The notes beneath the pieces were generated by a model. The model saw only the letters and a program-made list of their open reading frames with translations, had not been told where the DNA came from and did not search any database. The position numbers were made by a program, and so were the translations under genes. From Acholeplasma sp. (GTDB lineage Bacteria; Bacillota_I; Bacilli_A; ML615J-28; CAG-698), in NCBI GenBank assembly GCA_012838635.1, contig DUOW01000005.1, positions 15,555 to 79,554 on the forward strand: a stretch of DNA of 64,000 nucleotides, read 5' to 3'. The stretch's first letter is position 1, and each line of letters begins with the position of its first letter. Shown here one piece after another: positions 39,911 through 64,000 of this stretch.

Positions 39911-42595
39911 TTAATCAAGATGTGCTTTATAAATTAAAGCATCTTGTCCATCTTTTAATACAATTCCTAAGAACTTTTGATAGTCTGCATTTGAGAAATC
40001 TGCTTCTTTAAAATCAAATGTTAGTCCTTTTTGTTTAGTAGTTAGGATATGGCTATTGTTCTTAGTAGCATCTTCTTTAAGACCTTTTAACCAGAATTCA
40101 GCAACTGTCTTTTGATCTGAATCTTTAATTGTATCGCCGTTTAGATACTTTGTAGCAAGTTCAAATGTTGGGAATGTGTATTCAACATCATCAACTTTAT
40201 AAGTTGCAAGTGGATATGTCTTAGTATTTACATAAACATGATAACCAAATTCAGTTACTAAGTGTTCCCCAATTGCTACTGTTACGCCAAAGATTTGGTC
40301 TTCAGTACTATCAGGATTTAAATCCCAAACTTTTTTAACACCTTCATTAAATGCTTCTACCATTCCGCCAGATTGTCCTGGAAGTTTATATTCAAAAACA
40401 TTTAGGTTTTCATATTTAACTTTTAGACCTGCAGTCTTGAATTTAGAAACATCAATCATTCCATCTAAATCATATTCCATATCATTAATTGTAAAGACAG
40501 GTTGTGAAGCAGCATCTTGAGGTAAGTGTGCTTGGAATAAAGGTGCATCAGTAAATGCTTGGGTAATCTTATCAAATTGAGCTTTGTAATCACCTTTAGC
40601 AACTAAGTAAGCTTGTACTTGTGCATATAACTCTTCTGCAAGTTCGATTTGTTTTGGAGTCCAATCTTTTGGATCTACTAATTTTTCATTATCGGCAGTT
40701 GAATTTTCTTCATCTACAATATAGATTAATAAATGATAACCACTTACTTTATAATATTTGTCTTTAACATTTTCCATATTTTTCATATAATACTCAGTCC
40801 AAATTGGATCAGTTTCACTAATTAATGAAAAATCTGTATATGGTTTAGTAGCTTCAGCTGATAATTGTTCATATAACAATCTAATTTTTACTTCATCTTC
40901 ATTGTTAGCTTGGAATCTATATTTCATATAGTCTGACCAAGACATATAAGCTGAATAGTTTGCATATTGAGCTTTCTCATCGGCGAACTTAGTTTTGATT
41001 TTAGCCCATGCTTTTTTATCTAATACTCTTTCATTTTTCACATCATAAATCTTATTAATCTCAGGATTGTTTAGTACTCTTTGGAAATTAATTTCATTAA
41101 TAGCTACATTCATTCCATAGTCGTTATTTAATTTATGATAGAAATCTTCTACTGAATATTCAATATCACCAAACTTAGCAATTAGATCTTTGCTTCTAGC
41201 TTTGCTTGTTTCAAATTCAGCTTTATGTGTATTTGCTTGTGATTTATAATAAGTTTCAATTTCTTTATCATATAAAACTAAATCTTTTGTAGCACGTAAG
41301 TGATACATTGCTTTAGTTACGTAAGATGAAGTAAGTGTATCTTTCTTTAACTTTTCAATAACTTTATCTTGAACTTCTTCTAAAGTTGGTTTAGAAATAG
41401 TTTTAATTTTGATAAATGAGACAAACTTTTTACCACTATCTAAAGACATAAAGTAGTTTTTAAACCATCTTTGGTCTTTATCTACTACTGATGTTTCTGA
41501 ATCATAAGCTTTAAAGTTCATTACATCTGATAATACAGCAGTACCGATAGCTTTTAATTCATCTTCAGTATACAATAAAGCATTCTTTGGATCATCACTA
41601 ATCTCTCCATCTTCATCTTTAATAACTTCTTGGTGGAAAACATAATGACCATCAGCATCAATAGTGTATTGTACACCTTCTTTTAATGTTAATGTTTCTG
41701 TTGGATAATCAGTTACTTTATAACTATTTAATGTATTATATAAATCAATAAAAGCTTTGATTGTTTCTTCTCTTGTTAGTTCTTCTTCAGCTTGTTCTTC
41801 ATTAGGAATTTTTACCCATTTAGTATAAGAATCTGGGATAAGAACACCATTTTCGTCTTTTTCTTGATCTTTAATTTTATATCCTAATTGTTCTAAAGCT
41901 GAATAAGCTTCTTTACGTGTTGGATATTCAATTATAAGTGCGAAATATGTATCTTTGTATAATGAATTATATTTAGTTTCAATTGCAGATTTAGTAAAAT
42001 ATTTTTCTGTATCATCTTCAGCTTCAGCATCTTTTTCTTCAATTTCTTTTTCTAAGAAATCAGCTGCATAAGCTTTCTTTGCAAGTTCTAAATGATAGTA
42101 TTCTTTAATTTTCGCTTCTGTTCGTAAGCCTTGAATATATCTTGCATCATAGAATTTTGCTTCAGCTTCAGCTTTTTCTTCGGCTGTTGCTTTATCTAAA
42201 TCTAAATCTTTATACATTTCTTTTTCAAGTTCTTCTTGGATTTCTGCGTCTGTAACTTGAGCTAGATAATTCTTTTCACCATTTTCCAAAATTTCACGAT
42301 CTAATGTTTCAAGTAAAGCATTTACTCCATATTGATCTTTTAATAATGAATACATTTCACCTTTTGTTAAATAGTATTCATTATCTCCTTCACCTACTAC
42401 AACGTATTGGCCATCTGCATCTTTAATCATTGGCGCTTTACGATTGTTTTTTGCCACTGTTGAAGCAACTGCAATAACAACAATTACTAAAACAACTAAT
42501 ACAACAGGCAAAGTACTTAACAATATTGTTTTAGGACTTATCTTTGGCGCGTCCTTTTGTTTATTTGCCTTGTTTTTTACTCTTCTTCTTTTCAT
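39911..42595 (-). CDS. unusually large membrane-anchored PrsA/SurA-like foldase: N-terminal TM, SurA_N-like chaperone domain, long acidic linker region, parvulin-type PPIase domain split by an insertion
   Basis: 894 aa. N-terminal TM helix. The segment DGQYVVVGEGDNEYYLTKGEMYSLLKDQYGVNALLETLDREILE resembles the PrsA N-domain. Parvulin motifs SGYHLLIYIV and GGMVEAFNEGVKKV...FGYHVYV lie about 120 aa apart. Position is next to yhaM, as for B. subtilis prsA. Confidence 0.5.
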   Translation of the reverse strand: MKRRRVKNKANKQKDAPKISPKTILLSTLPVVLVVLVIVVIAVASTVAKNNRKAPMIKDADGQYVVVGEGDNEYYLTKGEMYSLLKDQYGVNALLETLDREILENGEKNYLAQVTDAEIQEELEKEMYKDLDLDKATAEEKAEAEAKFYDARYIQGLRTEAKIKEYYHLELAKKAYAADFLEKEIEEKDAEAEDDTEKYFTKSAIETKYNSLYKDTYFALIIEYPTRKEAYSALEQLGYKIKDQEKDENGVLIPDSYTKWVKIPNEEQAEEELTREETIKAFIDLYNTLNSYKVTDYPTETLTLKEGVQYTIDADGHYVFHQEVIKDEDGEISDDPKNALLYTEDELKAIGTAVLSDVMNFKAYDSETSVVDKDQRWFKNYFMSLDSGKKFVSFIKIKTISKPTLEEVQDKVIEKLKKDTLTSSYVTKAMYHLRATKDLVLYDKEIETYYKSQANTHKAEFETSKARSKDLIAKFGDIEYSVEDFYHKLNNDYGMNVAINEINFQRVLNNPEINKIYDVKNERVLDKKAWAKIKTKFADEKAQYANYSAYMSWSDYMKYRFQANNEDEVKIRLLYEQLSAEATKPYTDFSLISETDPIWTEYYMKNMENVKDKYYKVSGYHLLIYIVDEENSTADNEKLVDPKDWTPKQIELAEELYAQVQAYLVAKGDYKAQFDKITQAFTDAPLFQAHLPQDAASQPVFTINDMEYDLDGMIDVSKFKTAGLKVKYENLNVFEYKLPGQSGGMVEAFNEGVKKVWDLNPDSTEDQIFGVTVAIGEHLVTEFGYHVYVNTKTYPLATYKVDDVEYTFPTFELATKYLNGDTIKDSDQKTVAEFWLKGLKEDATKNNSHILTTKQKGLTFDFKEADFSNADYQKFLGIVLKDGQDALIYKAHLD

Positions 42596-51765: not shown

Positions 51766-52209
51766 TTATTCCTTTCCAACTACATAAACAGTTAATTTAG
51801 CTTTAACTTCAGGATGAAGATCAACCGTAACTACATATGTTCCTAAAGCATTAATGTCTTCTTTAATAATCTTTTTGCGATCTAAAGTAATATCGTATTT
51901 TGCTTTATATTCATCAACTATCATTTTACTACTTACAGAGCCAAAGATTTTTCCTTCTTTGCCTACTTTAACACCAATTGTAACTGGGTTTCCTTCAATC
52001 TTGTCGCGTAGTTCTTTCATTTCATTCTCTTTACTTAAAGCTAAACGTTTCTCTTTTTCTTTTTCTTTTTCAAGTTCTTTAATATTATCTACTGTTGCCA
52101 TAATCGCTTGACCACTACGAATAAGGAAGTTTCCATATCCACTCTTAACATCGATAATATCGCCTTTTTTACCTTTACCTTTAACTTCAGTCGTAAGTAT
52201 AATTCGCAT
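51766..52209 (-). CDS. rplI: 50S ribosomal protein L9
   Basis: 147 aa, MRIILTTEVKGKGKKGDIIDVKSGYGNFLI canonical L9. Own RBS GAGGAGGA 4 nt before the ATG at 52209. No stop codon separates it from the upstream gdpP frame. Confidence 0.9.
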   Translation of the reverse strand: MRIILTTEVKGKGKKGDIIDVKSGYGNFLIRSGQAIMATVDNIKELEKEKEKEKRLALSKENEMKELRDKIEGNPVTIGVKVGKEGKIFGSVSSKMIVDEYKAKYDITLDRKKIIKEDINALGTYVVTVDLHPEVKAKLTVYVVGKE

Positions 52210-54204
52210 TGAATCTCCTCCTCTCTCTTCTGAAATATCAATTTCTTTTAGAAGCAATTCTCTTGCTTCTTCCACATCTACTCCTCTTAACTGGCAGGCA
52301 GCATTATTATAATGGCCACCTCCACCTAAGGCTTCCATAATTAGTTGCACGTTAGTTTCATCTAAACTACGAGCACTAATTCCTATTTCATTATCCGAAA
52401 TTCTACCTAAACAAAACGACGCTTTAATTCCTTTAATCTCTAAAACATCATCAGCTACTTTAGCTAAAAACTGTCTTGGATTAGCATCATCTTTGATTGT
52501 AGCAATTCCATACTTTTCTTTATAAATCATAACGTTAGATAAAACAGTAATTCTCTTTTCATATTCGTCATAATCTTCACGCAAATATTTCTTTGCAAGT
52601 TGTAGCTCACCACCATAAGTTTGTAGTCTTGATAAAACGTTAAACGTTCTATAACTTGCACGATACATTAAGTCGTTAGTATCTACTAAAATACCCATTA
52701 CCATCCATGTTGCTTCAGCACTACTTACTGTAATATCTTTATCAATAAATTCATACATCTCCACAATTAACTCAATTGATGAAGATGCAGATGATGTTTG
52801 ATAGATATAATCATATTTATCAACTAAGAACTTACCAGGACGGTGATGGTCAATTACAGCTACATGTTTAGCTTTTTTATAAAGTTTTGGTTCCATCAAA
52901 ATCTTTTGGTTTTGAACATCGACAATTATTAATAAATCATGAGTTTTAATATCTCTAATTGCTTTTTTAGTACTAATTAAATAGTCAAGTGTAGCCGTAT
53001 GTTCTCTTTGAATAATTGAATATAAATACTGAATTGTTTGATCTACTTTATCTAAGTCAAAAACAATTTTTGCTTCTTTGTTATAAGCTGTGGCAATCTT
53101 TTGTACAGCAATTGCTGCCCCAAAAGCATCAGCATCAGCATCAATATGTGTCATAACATAAACTTTATTAGCCTTAAGAATTAATGATACTAATTCTTCA
53201 GCTTTAGTTCTTACATAAACAGGAGATCTACTTTCAAAAGAAGCAGTCTTTCCCCCAAAGTAAGAAACTTCTCCATATTTATTTAAAACACATTGGTTTC
53301 CACCACGATTTAAAGCTAATTGTAATTGTGCTTCAGCTAAAGCAAATAACTCAACATAACTTAAATCAGCATTATCAGCAATCGCAACTCCAATTGATGC
53401 ACTTGATCTAATATCTTCTTTCAAACAATATGACTTAATGTCATCAATTACTTTAAATTCATCTTTCACAACTTCTTTAAGTTGTTTTTCGTTTAATAAA
53501 ATTAAATATTGGTTGTCACTATAACCTTTTAAGTAGATTCCAAACTTGCCACACCAATCACTTAAAATACCAATGATGTTACTCATCTGTGATGATCTTT
53601 CTTGCGCATCAAAGCCAGATAAAGCATCATTTAAGTTATCTAAGTTAATAATACCAGCAGATAAAGTATGATCTGCATATTTTTGTGTTAAGTTATGAAA
53701 ATCCGTAACGTCAGTTAAATAAACGATGTTTTCTTCCATTAAAACTTTACATGAAAAAATAGATCCATATAAACTAATTTCAAACTCTTCTTCATTGGAT
53801 AAGTTGTAATATAAATCTGAGCTAATGTTTTCGATTTTAACATCAACTAATTCGCTTAAGAAAATTTCCTTAGCATAAGCATTAGCCCATTGAATTGTTT
53901 TGTTTTTATTATAGACAATAATACCAATAGGTAATTTATTAAAAGCTGTTTCTCCACCTTTTTTAACACGGTAAGAAATTGAGTTCCATAACTCATACCT
54001 TTGTTCTAACCATTGCATTTTTCTAAACTTCTTATTCCCAACATTTAAAACAAAAACTGTCGTAAATGATGCTGCGACAATAACTAAAGCAACATAAGTT
54101 AGCCATTCGTTTATTTCCCCAAAAATAGCTGTGAAAATAAGTACGAAGCAAGAAGCTAAGAAAAGCATTAAAGATATTATTCTATAGACTAATGTATTTC
54201 TCAT
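52210..54204 (-). CDS. gdpP: GdpP/YybT-type c-di-AMP phosphodiesterase (2 TM, PAS, degenerate GGDEF, DHH/DHHA1). It lacks its own stop codon and reads in-frame into rplI
   Basis: Two N-terminal TM helices. DHH motif region (HIDADADAFG) and DHHA1 GGGGH. 665 codons up to the rplI ATG. The six-frame ORF continues for 812 aa. Confidence 0.8.
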
Positions 54205-58065: not shown

Positions 58066-58617
58066 CTATCTAATTCCACTAATTGCTTTTTCGATTCTTT
58101 TAGCTTCTTCTTTCCCAGATATTTTCTTCACAATTTCTAAAGCAAATTCAATTGTATAAGCCATTGCTCTAGCTGTAATAATGTTATTTGCTACAACTAC
58201 TTCTTTTTCTGGATAATATGAACCACTCTTTAAATATTCATCTAATCCAGGAAAACAAGTAAATTTCTTTCCTTTTAATAAACCAAGTCTACTTAATACT
58301 GTTGGGCCAGCACAAATAGCACCGATAATTTTTTGATTCATTACAAACTCTTCTACAATCTCGCTAACTAAAGCACTAGAATGAAAAGTAAGTACCGACT
58401 TTAAACCACCAGGTATAATCAAAAAGCCATATTCTTCGCTAATAACATCGCTTAACCTTGTGTCTGCTGCTACTTGTACATTATGGCTTGAAGTAACAGT
58501 TAAATCTAATCCTACACTTGCTAAAGTCACATCTAACTTAGCCCTGCGTAAAATATCAATCGTGATGATTGCTTCAGATTCTTCAAAACCATTTGCTAAT
58601 AAAACTAATCCTTTCAT
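58066..58617 (-). CDS. DJ-1/PfpI family protein
   Basis: 183 aa with a nucleophile elbow AICAGP. Confidence 0.8.
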   Translation of the reverse strand: MKGLVLLANGFEESEAIITIDILRRAKLDVTLASVGLDLTVTSSHNVQVAADTRLSDVISEEYGFLIIPGGLKSVLTFHSSALVSEIVEEFVMNQKIIGAICAGPTVLSRLGLLKGKKFTCFPGLDEYLKSGSYYPEKEVVVANNIITARAMAYTIEFALEIVKKISGKEEAKRIEKAISGIR

Positions 58618-59129
58618 TAATTGACCCTCCCTATATAATTTTTAGACTCATACTGTCCTTTTAATAACTTAACGATGTGAATAAATATTTCAACTCTAGG
58701 AACATTATTATTGGTAAAGATCCCAATAGCACCTTCTTTAGTATTAATCTCTTCTTTATTATAATGATAATTCATAATATCTGCAAGTTCTTTTCCTTCT
58801 TCATAAATTTCATTATAGATAAACTTAGGTAAAGGAATTTTTGTTCCCGATGCCAGATAAACATTATCATCTTGATCTATTAAAACCCCAAAGTTAATTA
58901 GAAATAAGATATCTTCTTCTAAACTAACACCTGCTTCTAAACCAATCCTTAACCCATCTTTTGGTAAAGCTTTAGCTCTATTGTAAGCACCTTGCATCGT
59001 TTCCTTTTCGCTTTTAGGTTGGTTAGATACCTTACTATCAGTCTTCAAAGCAATAACAGTAGCTTCCTTAAAAACTTCTCTTACTGCTTCTACTTTAGTT
59101 CTGTTTTGACTAGCGATATATACTTTCAC
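58617..59129 (-). CDS. inosine/xanthosine triphosphatase (YjjX/DUF84 non-canonical purine NTP phosphatase)
   Basis: N-terminus MKVYIASQNRTKVEAV... and E.G pattern typical of the YjjX family. Confidence 0.6.
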   Translation of the reverse strand: MKVYIASQNRTKVEAVREVFKEATVIALKTDSKVSNQPKSEKETMQGAYNRAKALPKDGLRIGLEAGVSLEEDILFLINFGVLIDQDDNVYLASGTKIPLPKFIYNEIYEEGKELADIMNYHYNKEEINTKEGAIGIFTNNNVPRVEIFIHIVKLLKGQYESKNYIGRVN

Positions 59130-60187
59130 TTCTTTAATTCAAGTAATCTTTCTTTACTAAAATCTTTTATAATTTCTAAAACAATTGCCTTTACCGCTTC
59201 TACATCCCTAACATCAATCATTGATGTATTAGAGTGAATATATCTTCCTGGCAGGCCAATTGTAATACTAAAACATCCACTACCGGCATATTGAGCTATA
59301 GCAGCATCTGTTCCCCCCATTGATAAAAAGAATTGATAATCAATCTTGTGTTTCTTTGCCAACCCTTCTACATACTCAAGCATCTTAGGATTCATAATGT
59401 TACGTGGATCATAAAATCTAATTAAAAATCCTCCATTTAACTTTCCAAAAGCATCTCCTGGTCCAGGTGTTGCATCACCAACTGGCGAAACATCAAGAGC
59501 AATAAATAGATCTGGTTCTACCATTTGTGATGATGTCTTAGCACCACGTAAACCTACTTCTTCTTGAACTGTTGCCCCACAAATTACTGTATTTGGATGG
59601 CTAATATTCTTAAGTTCACGAAATACTTCTAAAGCCATTCCTGTACCAAAACGGTTATCCCAAGCTTTAGAAACAATTCTATTTTTATTTTTTGTTATGT
59701 AATAATCATTTTCAAAAGTTAAAAAGTCTCCTGGTTTAATGCCCCACTTTTCTAAATCTTTTTTTGATTCAGCCCCTACATCAATAAATAAGTTTTCTAC
59801 TTTAATTTCACCATTAGCTCCCATATGTGGTGGTACAGAAGCAACTACACCTTTAACTTTACCTTTAGTAGTTTCGATAACAACATTTTGTGATACCCAA
59901 ACATGAGGAACAACTCCGCCAATATTAATGAACTTGATAAATCCGTTTTCTTGAAGTCTTGTAACCATACCACCAACTTCATCCATATGCCCAGCAATCA
60001 TAATTACTGGTTCATCTTTCTTTCCTCTTTTTACACCAAAAACAGAGCCTAATCCATCTCTTAAAATTTCATCAGTCTCTTTCTTGTATTCTTCTAATAA
60101 ATATTCTTTAACTAAACCTTCATCACCACTAGGACCATTTAAGTTAGTTAAGTCTTCATATAATTTCATTCTTTTCTTAGTTGTCAT
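59126..60187 (-). CDS. M42 family glutamyl aminopeptidase (FrvX/YsdC/PepA-like)
   Basis: MTTKKRMKLYEDLTNLNGPSGDEG and metal-binding HMDEVG, 353 aa. The ATG at 60187 is preceded by AAGGCGG 6 nt upstream. Confidence 0.8.
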   Translation of the reverse strand: MTTKKRMKLYEDLTNLNGPSGDEGLVKEYLLEEYKKETDEILRDGLGSVFGVKRGKKDEPVIMIAGHMDEVGGMVTRLQENGFIKFINIGGVVPHVWVSQNVVIETTKGKVKGVVASVPPHMGANGEIKVENLFIDVGAESKKDLEKWGIKPGDFLTFENDYYITKNKNRIVSKAWDNRFGTGMALEVFRELKNISHPNTVICGATVQEEVGLRGAKTSSQMVEPDLFIALDVSPVGDATPGPGDAFGKLNGGFLIRFYDPRNIMNPKMLEYVEGLAKKHKIDYQFFLSMGGTDAAIAQYAGSGCFSITIGLPGRYIHSNTSMIDVRDVEAVKAIVLEIIKDFSKERLLELKK

Positions 60188-60817
60188 TTTTACCGCCTTT
60201 ATATAATATATATTTTTATTTTCTTCTTTAAATTTTTGTTCATATTCTGTTTCAACAGAATCATTAATTTTTGAATCAAAGTCAGTACTTTGTTTTTTAA
60301 TTATAAAGTTAGTTTTACTTAAAGTAGATAAACTATAATTAAATAAATTTTCATTATCTGTCTTTAATTCTAGTACTCCCTCATTTACTAAGATATCTAA
60401 ATATTGTCTTAAAAAGTGAGGAGCTGTTAATCTTCTTTTCGCATGCCTTTCTTTAGGCCAAGGATCAGAGAAATTCAAATAGATTTTCGAAACTTCTAAA
60501 CTAGCAAAATAATCAAGTAGATTATTGGCATCAACACTTAATAAATAAATATTTTCAAGTTTAGTTTTGCTAATCATTCTTGCCGCTTTTAAAAGCACAG
60601 TATTTGACTTTTCAATTCCAATATAATTAATATTAGGATTTAAGACAGCACTTTCTTTTAAAAACTTTCCCTTACCCATCCCAATCTCTAAATGAATAGG
60701 ATTATTATTTTTAAAAAGCTCATTCCATTTTCCTTTATATTTATTAGGCTCAGCTATATAATAATCTTTAAATTCTAAGAGTTTAAGATCAGCATCTTTA
60801 ATATTCTTAATACGCAA
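60188..60817 (-). CDS. trmB: tRNA (guanine46-N7)-methyltransferase TrmB. It lacks its own stop codon and reads in-frame into the M42 peptidase gene
   Basis: 210 codons carrying TrmB motifs (IHLEIGMGKG, NFSDPWPK). The six-frame ORF continues as one 563-aa frame. Confidence 0.75.
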
Positions 60818-60819
60818 AA

Positions 60820-62175
60820 TTACTTACTTAGCTCCTTTATCGCATCAGCATAAATCATTGTACCAAGAAGACAATCTTCAACTGTAATATATTCATTAGG
60901 TTCATGAATGTTTGCTACTGTATGAGCAAATGTTGGTCCAAAAGAAACACCTTTCTTGAGAATCCTCGCATATGTTCCCCCACCAATAGTAAATGGCTTA
61001 CCTTCTTCATCATTAGTATATTTCTTATAAGAAGCAAATAATGTTTGGACTAATTCTTCATTAGGGTCTACATAATGAGGAGTTTGATCGCTTAAGATCT
61101 CAAACTTAAAACCATATTCACTAACCTCTAAATGAAGTTTCTTTAAGAATTCTTCTTTAGGAAAGTCAATTGGATATCTTAAATTTAAACCGATTTTATT
61201 TCCTTTAGGATTAATTTCAATTTTAGCTAAATTTACTGTTAGATGTCCCATTTTTTCATTTTGATAATCTAACCCCATACCTCTAAAATAAGGATCTTTC
61301 ATTTTATCACTAACAAAATTTACAACTGGGTTAGTTAAATAATCGCTCAAAAAACAAGCAAGTTTGATTGCAGCATTAACCCCTAAATAAGGAGCACTAC
61401 CATGAGCTGTTTTACCATAAACAGTTAATTTATATAAATTGTTTTCTTTACTAACTTCACCTTTAAGATCATTTTCTTTTAGATAGTCTAAAAACTCATG
61501 TTCTAAATTTTTCTTAATTAAAGCTTCGGCTTTATCAGGAACAACATTATAACGATCTCCTGCAGTAAAAGCTACAATCTCATCTTCTACATAACTAGAA
61601 ACTAAATCAATAGACATAATTCCCTTTTCTCCATGAATTACAGGAAAGGATGCATCGGGTGAAAAACCTACTTCAGGAAGCTTTTCAAACTTAGCATAAC
61701 GCCTCATACACTCCCAACCCGTTTCTTCATCAGTACCAATAATTAATCTTACCTTTTTCTTAGGCGTAAAACCTAAATCTTTTAAAACTTTCATTGCATA
61801 TAACGCACAGATAACAGGTCCTTTATCATCTATTGCCCCACGGCCATAAATCTTACCATCTACAAGTTTACCAGAAAAAGGAGGATAATCCCATTCTCCA
61901 CTTGCGGGAACAACATCAACATGACCTAAAATACCAATTATTTCATCCCCTTGACCAAAGTCTATATGTCCTGCTACATTATCTACAAGTTTAACTTCAA
62001 AACCCATTTCTTTTCCTAACTTTAAAACATAAAGTAAAGAATCTTTTGCCCCCTTACCAAAAGGAGCATCTATCGTAACAGGTGTTTCATTCTTGACGCT
62101 ATTAATTTGAATTAACTCTTGAATTGAGGTAACTAATTTCTTTTCATTCTTTTTAACTGCGTTTGTAATTTCCAT
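60820..62175 (-). CDS. pepV: M20 family dipeptidase (PepV/Sapep-like)
   Basis: HVDVVP, GRGAIDDKG and a DEE region typical of M20 dipeptidases; 451 aa. Confidence 0.8.
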   Translation of the reverse strand: MEITNAVKKNEKKLVTSIQELIQINSVKNETPVTIDAPFGKGAKDSLLYVLKLGKEMGFEVKLVDNVAGHIDFGQGDEIIGILGHVDVVPASGEWDYPPFSGKLVDGKIYGRGAIDDKGPVICALYAMKVLKDLGFTPKKKVRLIIGTDEETGWECMRRYAKFEKLPEVGFSPDASFPVIHGEKGIMSIDLVSSYVEDEIVAFTAGDRYNVVPDKAEALIKKNLEHEFLDYLKENDLKGEVSKENNLYKLTVYGKTAHGSAPYLGVNAAIKLACFLSDYLTNPVVNFVSDKMKDPYFRGMGLDYQNEKMGHLTVNLAKIEINPKGNKIGLNLRYPIDFPKEEFLKKLHLEVSEYGFKFEILSDQTPHYVDPNEELVQTLFASYKKYTNDEEGKPFTIGGGTYARILKKGVSFGPTFAHTVANIHEPNEYITVEDCLLGTMIYADAIKELSK

Positions 62176-62222
62176 CTTTAATACCTCTTATTTCATATTA
62201 TATCATTTATCTTTTTATTTGC

Positions 62223-64000
62223 CTATTTGTTTTTATTATACATTTCCATAAATTTAAGTTTAATATCTTCTACACTAAAGCCATATGCTTTTAAAACAGC
62301 TTGTGGCTTACCACTTGTACCAAATTTATTTACATTATATAAAACACCAGTACGATTGATAAATAAAGCTAAATGCATAGCTTCACTTAACTCTAAAGCC
62401 ATAATGTTTTTAGAATCAGGAATAACTTTGTTTATATATTTTTCATCTCGACTTAAAAAAACATTAACTGAAGGAATAGAGCATACTCTTATATCAATTC
62501 CTTCTTTTAATAATTCATCCTTAACATCTAAAGCTAGTTTACATTCAGAACCAGATGTTACAATAATACCATCTAATTTAGACTTTTCTTTAGCAAGTAT
62601 ATATCCACCTTTTAAAGCATCTTTAAGATGTTTACTTTTAGTAACTGTAGGAACATTTTGTCTTGTAAGGACAAAAACACTTGGGCGATTCTTATCACTT
62701 AAAGCCTTCTCCCAACAAGCAATCAGTTCATTTCCGTCAGCTGGACGGAAAACATTTAAGTTAGGAATGCTTCTAAGCATTGTTAACTGTTCAATCGGTT
62801 GATGAGTTGGACCATCTTCTCCAACTGCTAAAGAGTCATGACTAAAGATATAAAACACTTGATTTCCCATTAAAGAGGCTAGACGTATTGCCGGCTTTAA
62901 ATAATCAGAGAAAACAAAGAACGTAGAGGCAAAACCAATTAGGCCACTATGAAGACTAATACCATTAGTAATTGCTCCCATCGCATGTTCTCTAACACCA
63001 AATCTAATATTAGCTCCCTCTTTATTATCTTTTGAATAAAAACTGCTGTTAAGGCAAGCTTTTGTAGAAGAAGCTAAATCAGCAGCACCACCAAATAATG
63101 TCGGTAATTGTAAATAGATCTCGTTCATTACATCTTGATTTAAACTTCTTGTAGCTGCTACTTTATCTTCATAAAGAGGTAGTTTGCTAAAGTCAACTTT
63201 ATATTCTTTATTTAAAGCTTTTTTAAAGTTTTTATATTCTTCTGGATATTTTTTGCTATAAGCTTTTAAATCTTCTTCCCAAGATAGATATCTAATTTTA
63301 CCAACTTCTTCGCGTTTTTGATATGAATCTTTAACTTTTTTCAAAACAGTAAAAGCATCTCCCCCTAGCTTACTTCTAAATGAAGCAACTTCTTCACTTG
63401 GAAGAGGTGAACCATGAACTTTGTTTTGGCCTTCTAAACTAGAACCATGACCAATTTTTGTTTTTACTTCAATAAAATTTGGCTTATCACTAACTTTAGC
63501 TTTTTCTAAAGCTTTATCAAGTTCTTCAAGATTTTCTCCATTCTTTACTAAATAATAAGCAAAACCTAAAGATTCCATATATTCTTTAAAATCAAAAGAA
63601 ACAATATCTTTAGTTGGTCCATCTAATTGAATATCATTAGAATCAAAGATAATAATTAATTTATTCAAATTGTTATGACCTGCAAAACTTAAAGCTTCTA
63701 AAGCAACTCCTTCTTGCAAATCTCCATCACCACATAAACAGTATGTATAATGATCTACTATGCTTAAATCTTCTTTATTAAAAACAGAAGCTAGATGACT
63801 TTCAGCTAAAGCTAACCCAACTGCCATGCCAATACCTTGCCCTAAAGGACCAGTTGAAACATCAACACCATCAGTAATGCCTACTTCTGGATGTCCTGGT
63901 GTAGGTGTCCCTAGTTGACGGAAATTCTTTAAATCTTCTAAAGATATATTATATCCTGCTAAGGCTAAAGTTGCATATAGAATTGATGAGCCATGCCCTG
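62223..64000 (-). CDS. tkt: transketolase (5' end beyond the window)
   Basis: My translation of 63828-64000 continues the frame with GHGSSILYATLALAGY...GHPE...TGPLGQGIGMAVG (TPP-binding region). The ORF track shows only the portion from an internal Met. Confidence 0.9.
   Translation of the reverse strand, partial: GHGSSILYATLALAGYNISLEDLKNFRQLGTPTPGHPEVGITDGVDVSTGPLGQGIGMAVGLALAESHLASVFNKEDLSIVDHYTYCLCGDGDLQEGVALEALSFAGHNNLNKLIIIFDSNDIQLDGPTKDIVSFDFKEYMESLGFAYYLVKNGENLEELDKALEKAKVSDKPNFIEVKTKIGHGSSLEGQNKVHGSPLPSEEVASFRSKLGGDAFTVLKKVKDSYQKREEVGKIRYLSWEEDLKAYSKKYPEEYKNFKKALNKEYKVDFSKLPLYEDKVAATRSLNQDVMNEIYLQLPTLFGGAADLASSTKACLNSSFYSKDNKEGANIRFGVREHAMGAITNGISLHSGLIGFASTFFVFSDYLKPAIRLASLMGNQVFYIFSHDSLAVGEDGPTHQPIEQLTMLRSIPNLNVFRPADGNELIACWEKALSDKNRPSVFVLTRQNVPTVTKSKHLKDALKGGYILAKEKSKLDGIIVTSGSECKLALDVKDELLKEGIDIRVCSIPSVNVFLSRDEKYINKVIPDSKNIMALELSEAMHLALFINRTGVLYNVNKFGTSGKPQAVLKAYGFSVEDIKLKFMEMYNKNK

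Follow-up and report, generated by a model that had tools for sequence, protein, structure and literature searches.

The window, a 64-kb stretch of Acholeplasma sp. DNA with a G+C content of about 30% and long open reading frames (ORFs) under translation table 11, carries on its minus strand a gene for the tRNA (guanine46-N7)-methyltransferase TrmB which reads without a stop codon into a gene for an M42-family aminopeptidase. The resulting ORF of 563 amino acids (aa) and the elements of its junction, among them a Shine-Dalgarno (SD)-like motif, are listed here.

59126..60817, minus strand: TrmB-M42 fusion ORF, 563 aa, TTG start at 60817-60815, stop at 59128-59126
60188..60817, minus strand: TrmB half, aa 1-210, tRNA (guanine46-N7)-methyltransferase domain
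59126..60187, minus strand: M42 half, aa 211-563 plus stop, TET-type (tetrahedral), YtoP-like aminopeptidase
60193..60199, minus strand: SD-like AAGGCGG within the TrmB coding end, 5 nucleotides (nt) 5' of the internal ATG, read off the sequence
60188..60192, minus strand: A-rich spacer TAAAA from the SD-like motif to the internal ATG; the frame-merging indel lies in this short stretch
60185..60187, minus strand: internal ATG (M211), ancestral M42 start codon, aligned with the annotated M42 start of the unfused loci L009, L012 and L014
60166..60168, minus strand: ancestral trmB TGA, now out of frame within AGA-ATG-AAA, located by DNA alignment with L009

An earlier note on this DNA had described a stop-less 563-aa trmB-M42 frame. 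This description was borne out: the junction lies within one ORF, and its codons TAT TAT ATA AAG GCG GTA AAA followed directly by ATG ACA ACT AAG AAA AGA ATG AAA are free of stops. The corresponding protein sequence is YYIKAVK followed by MTTKKRMK, and the peptide stretch across the TrmB/M42 joint of the fusion protein is YYIKAVKMTTKK. The identical 563-aa protein is found in NCBI as HHU20971.1, 'TrmB [Acholeplasma sp.]'.

The family assignment of the TrmB half was examined with sequence profiles. TIGR00091 matched aa 25-210 (profile positions 3-192 of 194) with 181.8 bits against a cut-off of 112.65, NF001080 reached 188.9 bits against a cut-off of 132, and PF02390 matched aa 39-204 with 151.4 bits. 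The best matches of this half in the PDB were 7nyb (E = 2e-54) and 2fca (E = 8e-54), B. subtilis TrmB. The EIGxGxG and NFSDPWPK motifs do not vary between fused lineages, nor does the T153-D154 pair; by residue, E44, G46, G48, N115-K122, R128-R129 and T153-D154 are constant in 8 fused sequences from 3 lineages. As judged from these matches, the TrmB half is a full-length family member above the equivalog cut-off with conserved S-adenosylmethionine (SAM)-binding and catalytic motifs.

The M42 half was matched by PF05343 at aa 257-543 (profile positions 1-290 of 292) with 309.5 bits, the gathering score being 23.2. The near-full-length profile matches agree with the former description of a complete 210-aa TrmB and a complete 353-aa M42 protein. 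TIGR03107, the PepA equivalog, matched aa 222-558 with 312.4 bits and thus stayed below its cut-off of 469.7. For this reason we name the half an M42 (YtoP-like) peptidase; of the earlier designation 'M42 glutamyl aminopeptidase' the family stands, while by profile score 'glutamyl' or PepA is over-specific. The metal ligands and the catalytic Glu (H277, D279, D387, E419, E420, D442 and H528) are invariant in 43 sequences. After subtraction of 210 these positions match those of PhTET2. Sequence matches of the M42 half in the PDB include 1vhe and 3kl9.

An AlphaFold model of the fusion monomer showed a mean predicted local distance difference test (pLDDT) value of 87.8 and a predicted template modelling (pTM) score of 0.82. 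The modelled M42 half superimposed on B. subtilis YtoP (PDB integrative model 9a5r_A) with a template modelling (TM) score of 0.95 at 42% identity and also on TET peptidases, and its fold matched 9a5r_A, 5ds0, 3kl9 and 1y0r at a root-mean-square deviation of 1.5-2.0 Å. Two residues separate the last TrmB strand (204-210) from the first M42 helices (213-224), and pLDDT stays above 90 throughout the joint. The joint is thus modelled as seamless, without a flexible or low-confidence linker.

The fusion architecture was searched for among 5.8 billion proteins. At 99-100% identity the 563-aa architecture occurs in seven clusters, drawn from assemblies of NCBI, ENA and Logan, and the 563-aa fusion was seen in independent assemblies from NCBI, ENA, JGI and Logan. 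We call the fused lineage of the window clade A. More distant members are P0008, a 92% identical fusion on a 1.3-Mb contig of GCA_900198705.1, and P0009, which is 87% identical and whose 90% cluster comprises 59 members, one of them found on 117 contigs and another on 46. All eight clade-A genes examined (six distinct sequences at 86-100% identity) are 1692 nt long and contain only the terminal stop. Across the gene, clade-A relatives are 88-89% identical in nucleotides, with synonymous divergence (dS) of 0.36-0.57. A sequencing or assembly error is ruled out by the common frame in independent assemblies and diverged relatives. The earlier suggestion of a miscalled stop is contradicted by the same observation, since the species concerned differ by about 11-12% in their DNA.

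Within clade A the TrmB halves are 78-86% and the M42 halves 92-95% identical, TrmB being the faster-evolving half. The ratio of nonsynonymous to synonymous substitution rates (dN/dS) is 0.15-0.33 for TrmB and 0.05-0.12 for M42. By these estimates the clade-A fusion is inherited over species-level divergence with both halves under purifying selection. A fresh lesion does not agree with a fusion that has lasted through a dS of about 0.4-0.6, shows dN/dS far below 1 for TrmB as well as for M42, and arose at least four times independently.

Two 353-aa proteins of the P0009 cluster, P0280 and P0285, were considered as unfused clade-A variants and rejected as contig-end artefacts. The three contigs that carry P0280, which come from different samples (L181:1-31, L182:1-31 and L183:1-13), break off 12-30 nt 5' of the internal ATG, and the short sequence left there is in frame (KAIYYIKVVK followed by the Met). 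Co-occurring strains with a conserved M42 and a variable TrmB part likely break the assembly graph at this place and generate spurious M42-only calls of 353 aa.

The nearest unfused relatives (L009, L012-L016 and L101, from Acholeplasmataceae metagenome-assembled genomes, MAGs) share the operon order of the window, namely tkt, M20 dipeptidase, trmB, M42, NTPase_I-T, DJ-1/PfpI, P-type ATPase and rpsF. The absence of an ATPase call in L001/L100 is due to a scaffold gap of 100 N. The unfused relatives possess a trmB of 216-217 aa and an M42 gene of 355-359 aa; the overlap measures 17-22 nt, and the frame relation is +1 or +2. Compared with the window, their TrmB is about 48-55% and their M42 protein 58-61% identical, TrmB again being the faster partner. 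The trmB of L009 ends with KVKKWTSKKE at a TGA inside the M42 codons AGA-ATG-AAA; in L012 and L014 its stop is a TAG a few bases before the position of this TGA.

DNA alignment of the junctions revealed that AAGG and ATG are 8 nt apart in the window and in L001; the distance is 7 nt in L009, and 12 nt separate the two in L012/L014. The indel of the window upstream of the M42 ATG therefore amounts to +1 nt relative to L009 and -4 nt relative to L012. The L009-type TGA is intact in the window and can be read solely in another frame, where it follows QLRKE. Because the indel changes the frame and the TGA persists outside it, the stop was bypassed and not decayed. A point-mutated stop is ruled out, and of the earlier proposal of a decayed stop with a retained internal start only the retained SD and ATG remain. 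In the comparison of orthologous loci, which had been proposed as a check, the unfused relatives have a trmB stop that lies within M42 in another frame, and the clade-A relatives share the stop-less frame.

The junction was further surveyed in 16 species-representative genomes with adjacent trmB and M42 genes. It ranges from a 15-nt gap to a 22-nt overlap; the overlaps measure 4 (ATGA), 8, 17 or 22 nt, and the remaining junctions show gaps of 1-15 nt. In the surveyed unfused junctions the M42 SD (AAGGAGG, AAGGTG or GAGG) sits inside the last trmB codons. Frame offsets 1 and 2 are both common, and offset 0 with an in-frame stop was found in six loci (L019, L106-L108, L114 and L115). Judged by its layout, the trmB/M42 junction is a length-variable overlap of the translational-coupling type. 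Overlapping gene pairs and their frame transitions in such a coupling-type layout have been described (PMC3711429). In many Bacillaceae (L025-L086) trmB is located about 1-2.5 kb upstream of a YtoP-like M42 gene on the same strand; the proximity of the two genes therefore long predates the Acholeplasma-like lineages whose trmB and M42 genes touch.

The SD-like motif of the junction, AAGGCGG in the window and AAGGTGG in other clade-A members, corresponds to the M42 SD of the unfused relatives. The earlier note had placed it 6 nt before the internal ATG and had proposed that the peptidase can also be initiated independently. The motif is present and independent initiation is plausible, while the spacer measures 5 nt. 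Across the six distinct clade-A sequences that SD base is the sole variable one among the 24 nt preceding the internal ATG; codons 204-211 are without synonymous change, and codons 212-215 vary. As proof of a functional internal ribosome-binding site this synonymous constraint was rejected, because with six sequences it is suggestive only. A Met at the position equivalent to the M42 start is retained in the fused clades B and C introduced below. The internal start reads AAGGAG-N6-ATG in clade B and consists of a GGAAAGG- or GGAAGGG-type motif plus ATG in clade C, whose members are only 71% identical. An SD-like motif with ATG is thus kept in all fused lineages with DNA at hand (clades A, B and C).

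The fusion itself starts with TTG (window and L001) or GTG (L096:934 and L103-L105:601) in every clade-A member, and the trmB of the unfused loci L009, L012, L014 and L101 starts with ATG. Because of the TTG or GTG start, less of the fusion might be made than of internally initiated M42 protein. A search for an internal promoter between the halves gave consensus matches at the shuffle background (31 versus 26.2 ± 6.1), and no terminator was found between the halves on the minus strand. Internal initiation yielding a free M42 protein of 39 kDa is likely. The products would probably be a minority TrmB-M42 polypeptide of 64 kDa plus the free 39-kDa M42 protein; two products are likely in view of the preserved SD-like motif and ATG, whose sequence is locally invariant, and of the weak TTG or GTG start of the fusion.

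In order to place the fusion among related loci, a collection of about 180 loci was classified. The fused state is confined to clades A, B and C, and about 75 adjacent pairs are separate. A fourth fused lineage, D, is represented by P0129 (567 aa), for which only the protein sequence is at hand. The other fused ORFs, P0026 (570 aa), P0048/P0061/P0062 (551 aa) and P0129, are 35-43% identical to the window protein and lie in other gene neighbourhoods. In a library of 1.84 billion representative proteins, P0009 and P0129 were the only two-domain representatives among the best 150. Clades B and C were not visible among these, presumably having been merged into clusters with other representatives, and fusions are therefore undercounted in this library.

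Neighbour-joining trees computed for the TrmB half and for the M42 half were in agreement. In 100 bootstrap replicates of the concatenated TrmB and M42 alignment, clade A grouped with unfused Acholeplasmataceae MAGs (100), clade B with unfused Izemoplasmatales (100), clade C with another Acholeplasmataceae/Bacillota MAG group (100) and D with the unfused L093 (97, or 100 when L019 was added). The fused sequences were monophyletic in none of the 100 replicates. Since the Bacillaceae and Listeria outgroups are unfused, parsimony strongly favours four gains over a single gain followed by many fissions. According to these trees, the TrmB-M42 fusion arose at least four times independently at one junction, in lineages including Acholeplasmataceae-, Izemoplasmatales- and other Bacilli-like ones. 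In clades B and C the distance from SD to ATG again differs by 1-2 nt from that of the nearest unfused relatives.

The best explanation, to which we assign a probability of about 0.82, is a genuine, inherited in-frame trmB-M42 fusion which arose through a frame-merging indel, probably yields two products and is most likely near-neutral. Originally trmB and M42 overlapped out of frame in a tight operon with the M42 SD in the trmB end, an arrangement typical of translational coupling that the closest unfused Acholeplasmataceae and about 75 other loci still show. A small indel in the A-rich stretch 5' of the M42 ATG, amounting to one base modulo 3, then brought trmB into the M42 frame. The old stop is no longer read, and ribosomes initiating at trmB would continue through M42. 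The fused state became fixed and was kept through species-level divergence, and the same accident occurred independently in at least three further lineages. All TrmB activity would reside in the fusion protein, which may co-assemble with free M42 subunits. Most likely, the fusion is a tolerated, near-neutral by-product of the overlapping-gene layout and not an adaptation.

Several points weigh against this explanation. The fused state occurs in only about 4 of some 60 or more lineages, though one third of indel outcomes would be in frame; fusion may thus usually be selected against, which fits imperfectly with 'near-neutral'. The synonymous-free run of 8 codons rests on 6 sequences and is statistically weak, and the SD-like motif has a central mismatch (AAGGCGG or AAGGTGG). 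No paralogue of trmB or of the M42 gene was found in a search within the 64-kb window, and the rest of the genome could hold a second trmB copy. Both the accumulation of a 64-kDa product and the use of the internal ATG are inferred from the sequence.

Alternatively, the fusion could be adaptive in that TrmB and a YtoP-type M42 protein act together, co-localised or in a fixed ratio, as in a 'Rosetta stone' protein. We regard this as improbable, though it is the strongest competitor. In its favour, this gene pair became fused independently on four or more occasions, many Acholeplasmatales- and Izemoplasmatales-like genomes carry the two genes side by side and many Bacillaceae at a distance of about 1-2.5 kb, the fusion was retained over long divergence in clades A and C, and the model (pTM 0.82) lacks a flexible linker. 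However, recurrence is explained by opportunity, as the overlap length changes often and all three frame relations are observed, and most lineages keep the two genes separate. The retained internal start suggests that the cell still needs free M42 protein. Moreover, there is no known biochemical link between methylation of guanine 46 at N7 (m7G46) and an aminopeptidase, in agreement with the earlier view that the methyltransferase-peptidase pairing has no obvious functional logic; none was found here. No literature linking TrmB and YtoP-type M42 proteins was found either, and a cross-linking study in B. subtilis reports YtoP-YsdC without mention of TrmB. A specific form of such a partnership, in which the m7G46 methyltransferase docks on the tetrahedral aminopeptidase particle or is regulated or turned over by it, is equally doubtful; it is suggested by the repeated independent fusion together with a neighbourhood conserved from Bacillaceae to Acholeplasma-like bacteria. 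If it were true, the TET scaffold of the fused lineages would carry as many as twelve TrmB domains.

Decay of the TrmB half, to a non-functional leader on a working peptidase or as part of a pseudogene, has a small probability. Many bacteria can do without trmB, the fusion ORF starts with TTG or GTG, and in clade A TrmB evolves faster than M42 (78-86% versus 92-95% identity). Yet TrmB is likewise the faster partner among the unfused relatives (48-54% versus 58-61%), its dN/dS is clearly below 1, and the 8 genes have neither internal stops nor indels. Its full-length profile match exceeds the equivalog cut-offs, and its SAM-binding and catalytic motifs are invariant even across independently fused lineages. 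A one-base homopolymer miscall between genes that are really separate is very improbable. The frame change does adjoin a run of five A and the window probably derives from a MAG, but the same frame recurs across projects and pipelines (NCBI, ENA, JGI and Logan) and in relatives at 88-89% nucleotide identity, and the other fused lineages carry different junction sequences. Least probable of all is recoding, in which ribosomal or transcriptional slippage at the A-run would restore the old frame and let TrmB end at the retained TGA. The ancestral TGA is indeed kept out of frame with the A5 run just upstream, but it forms part of the conserved M42 codons for Arg-Met-Lys, and this suffices to explain why it was kept. 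In addition, there is no canonical slippery heptamer, and A5 is shorter than the runs that give efficient transcriptional slippage.

A second stop-less junction in the window, also announced earlier, does exist. The ORF at 51766-54204 on the minus strand (812 aa) leads from a complete GdpP, the cyclic di-AMP phosphodiesterase with PAS, GGDEF, DHH and DHHA1 domains, into a complete ribosomal protein L9. The junction, EERGGDS followed by MRIILTTEVKGKGKKGD, is in frame, and a strong SD for L9, AGAGGAGGAG, is located at 52224-52215, 5 nt before the L9 ATG (52209-52207). As in TrmB-M42, the two coding parts share one frame, and the downstream gene has kept an SD and ATG of its own. The GdpP-L9 fusion also occurs at L101:16071-18503 (810 aa, 58% identity), where trmB and M42 are separate, and is therefore older than the TrmB-M42 fusion. 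It supports the notion that this lineage tolerates read-through fusions at coupled junctions if the downstream gene keeps its own start signal. We found no literature on a GdpP-L9 fusion.

Proteins with two or three M42-matching stretches (tandem M42-M42, about 700-790 aa) were observed as well, namely P0128, P0141, P0147, P0156, P0157, P0184 and P0204. In other lineages, then, a large domain fused to the N-terminus of M42 is tolerated.

Three further features flank the fusion ORF.

60832..60837, minus strand: AAGGAG upstream of the fusion TTG, 14 nt away, within the end of the M20 dipeptidase gene, read off the sequence
60820..62175, minus strand: M20 dipeptidase, 451 aa, upstream operon neighbour, stop 2 nt before the fusion ORF, synteny kept in relatives
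58617..59129, minus strand: NTPase_I-T family protein, 170 aa, downstream operon neighbour, GTG start overlapping the fusion stop by 4 nt

The operon at 58066-63827 on the minus strand is very compact, the NTPase stop overlapping the DJ-1 start by 1 nt, and no terminator-like sites were found on the minus strand across 58066-63827. Elsewhere in the window, an 894-aa ORF at 39911-42595 (minus strand) matches no Pfam family at E <= 1e-5.

For annotation, these results mean that public records of the fusion, named 'TrmB' (NCBI) or 'glutamyl aminopeptidase' (JGI), each hide the other half. For genome evolution, the locus is a clear-cut case from nature of coupled genes whose out-of-frame overlap acts as a fusion hot-spot, because one junction displays all three frame relations, at least four in-frame outcomes and a retained downstream start. 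If the fusion is the sole TrmB of the cell, a tRNA-modification enzyme works tethered to a large self-compartmentalising peptidase; this tethering may indicate nothing beyond a tolerated accident. No paper on a TrmB-M42 fusion was found in the literature, and likewise none on TrmB together with YtoP.

The closest systems for comparison are the unfused Acholeplasmataceae pairs (L009, L012-L016 and L101), which have the same operon and the same place of the M42 SD and ATG as the window. Their frames differ and the genes overlap by 4-22 nt, whereas in the window the frames coincide and no stop intervenes. The fusions P0026, P0048/P0061/P0062 and P0129 share with the window the domain order, the Met at the M42 start and the junction, and P0026, P0048 and P0061, for which DNA is at hand, also an SD-like motif before this Met; they differ in that each groups with its own unfused relatives. 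B. subtilis YtoP and TrmB are the best matches of the two halves, yet they are separate proteins encoded by non-adjacent genes, and YtoP was reported to associate with its paralogue YsdC and not with TrmB. The bifunctional PrmC/TrmB (NF002421) shows that TrmB tolerates a place within a larger fusion protein, but there it is C-terminal and its partner is another methyltransferase. NF002421 matched only the TrmB part of the window protein with 51.5 bits against a cut-off of 567, and the protein is not a member of this family.

The mechanism, a lost frame offset between coupled overlapping genes, is already known and is not surprising in itself. In the engineered hsdM-hsdS fusion of EcoKI (PMC3510504), the frame offset of coupled overlapping genes was removed. 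As in TrmB-M42, a short out-of-frame overlap was turned into one polypeptide by a small indel. The hsdM-hsdS partners are subunits of one complex that were joined by design, whereas the TrmB-M42 fusion is natural, recurrent and formed by two proteins without a known functional relation.

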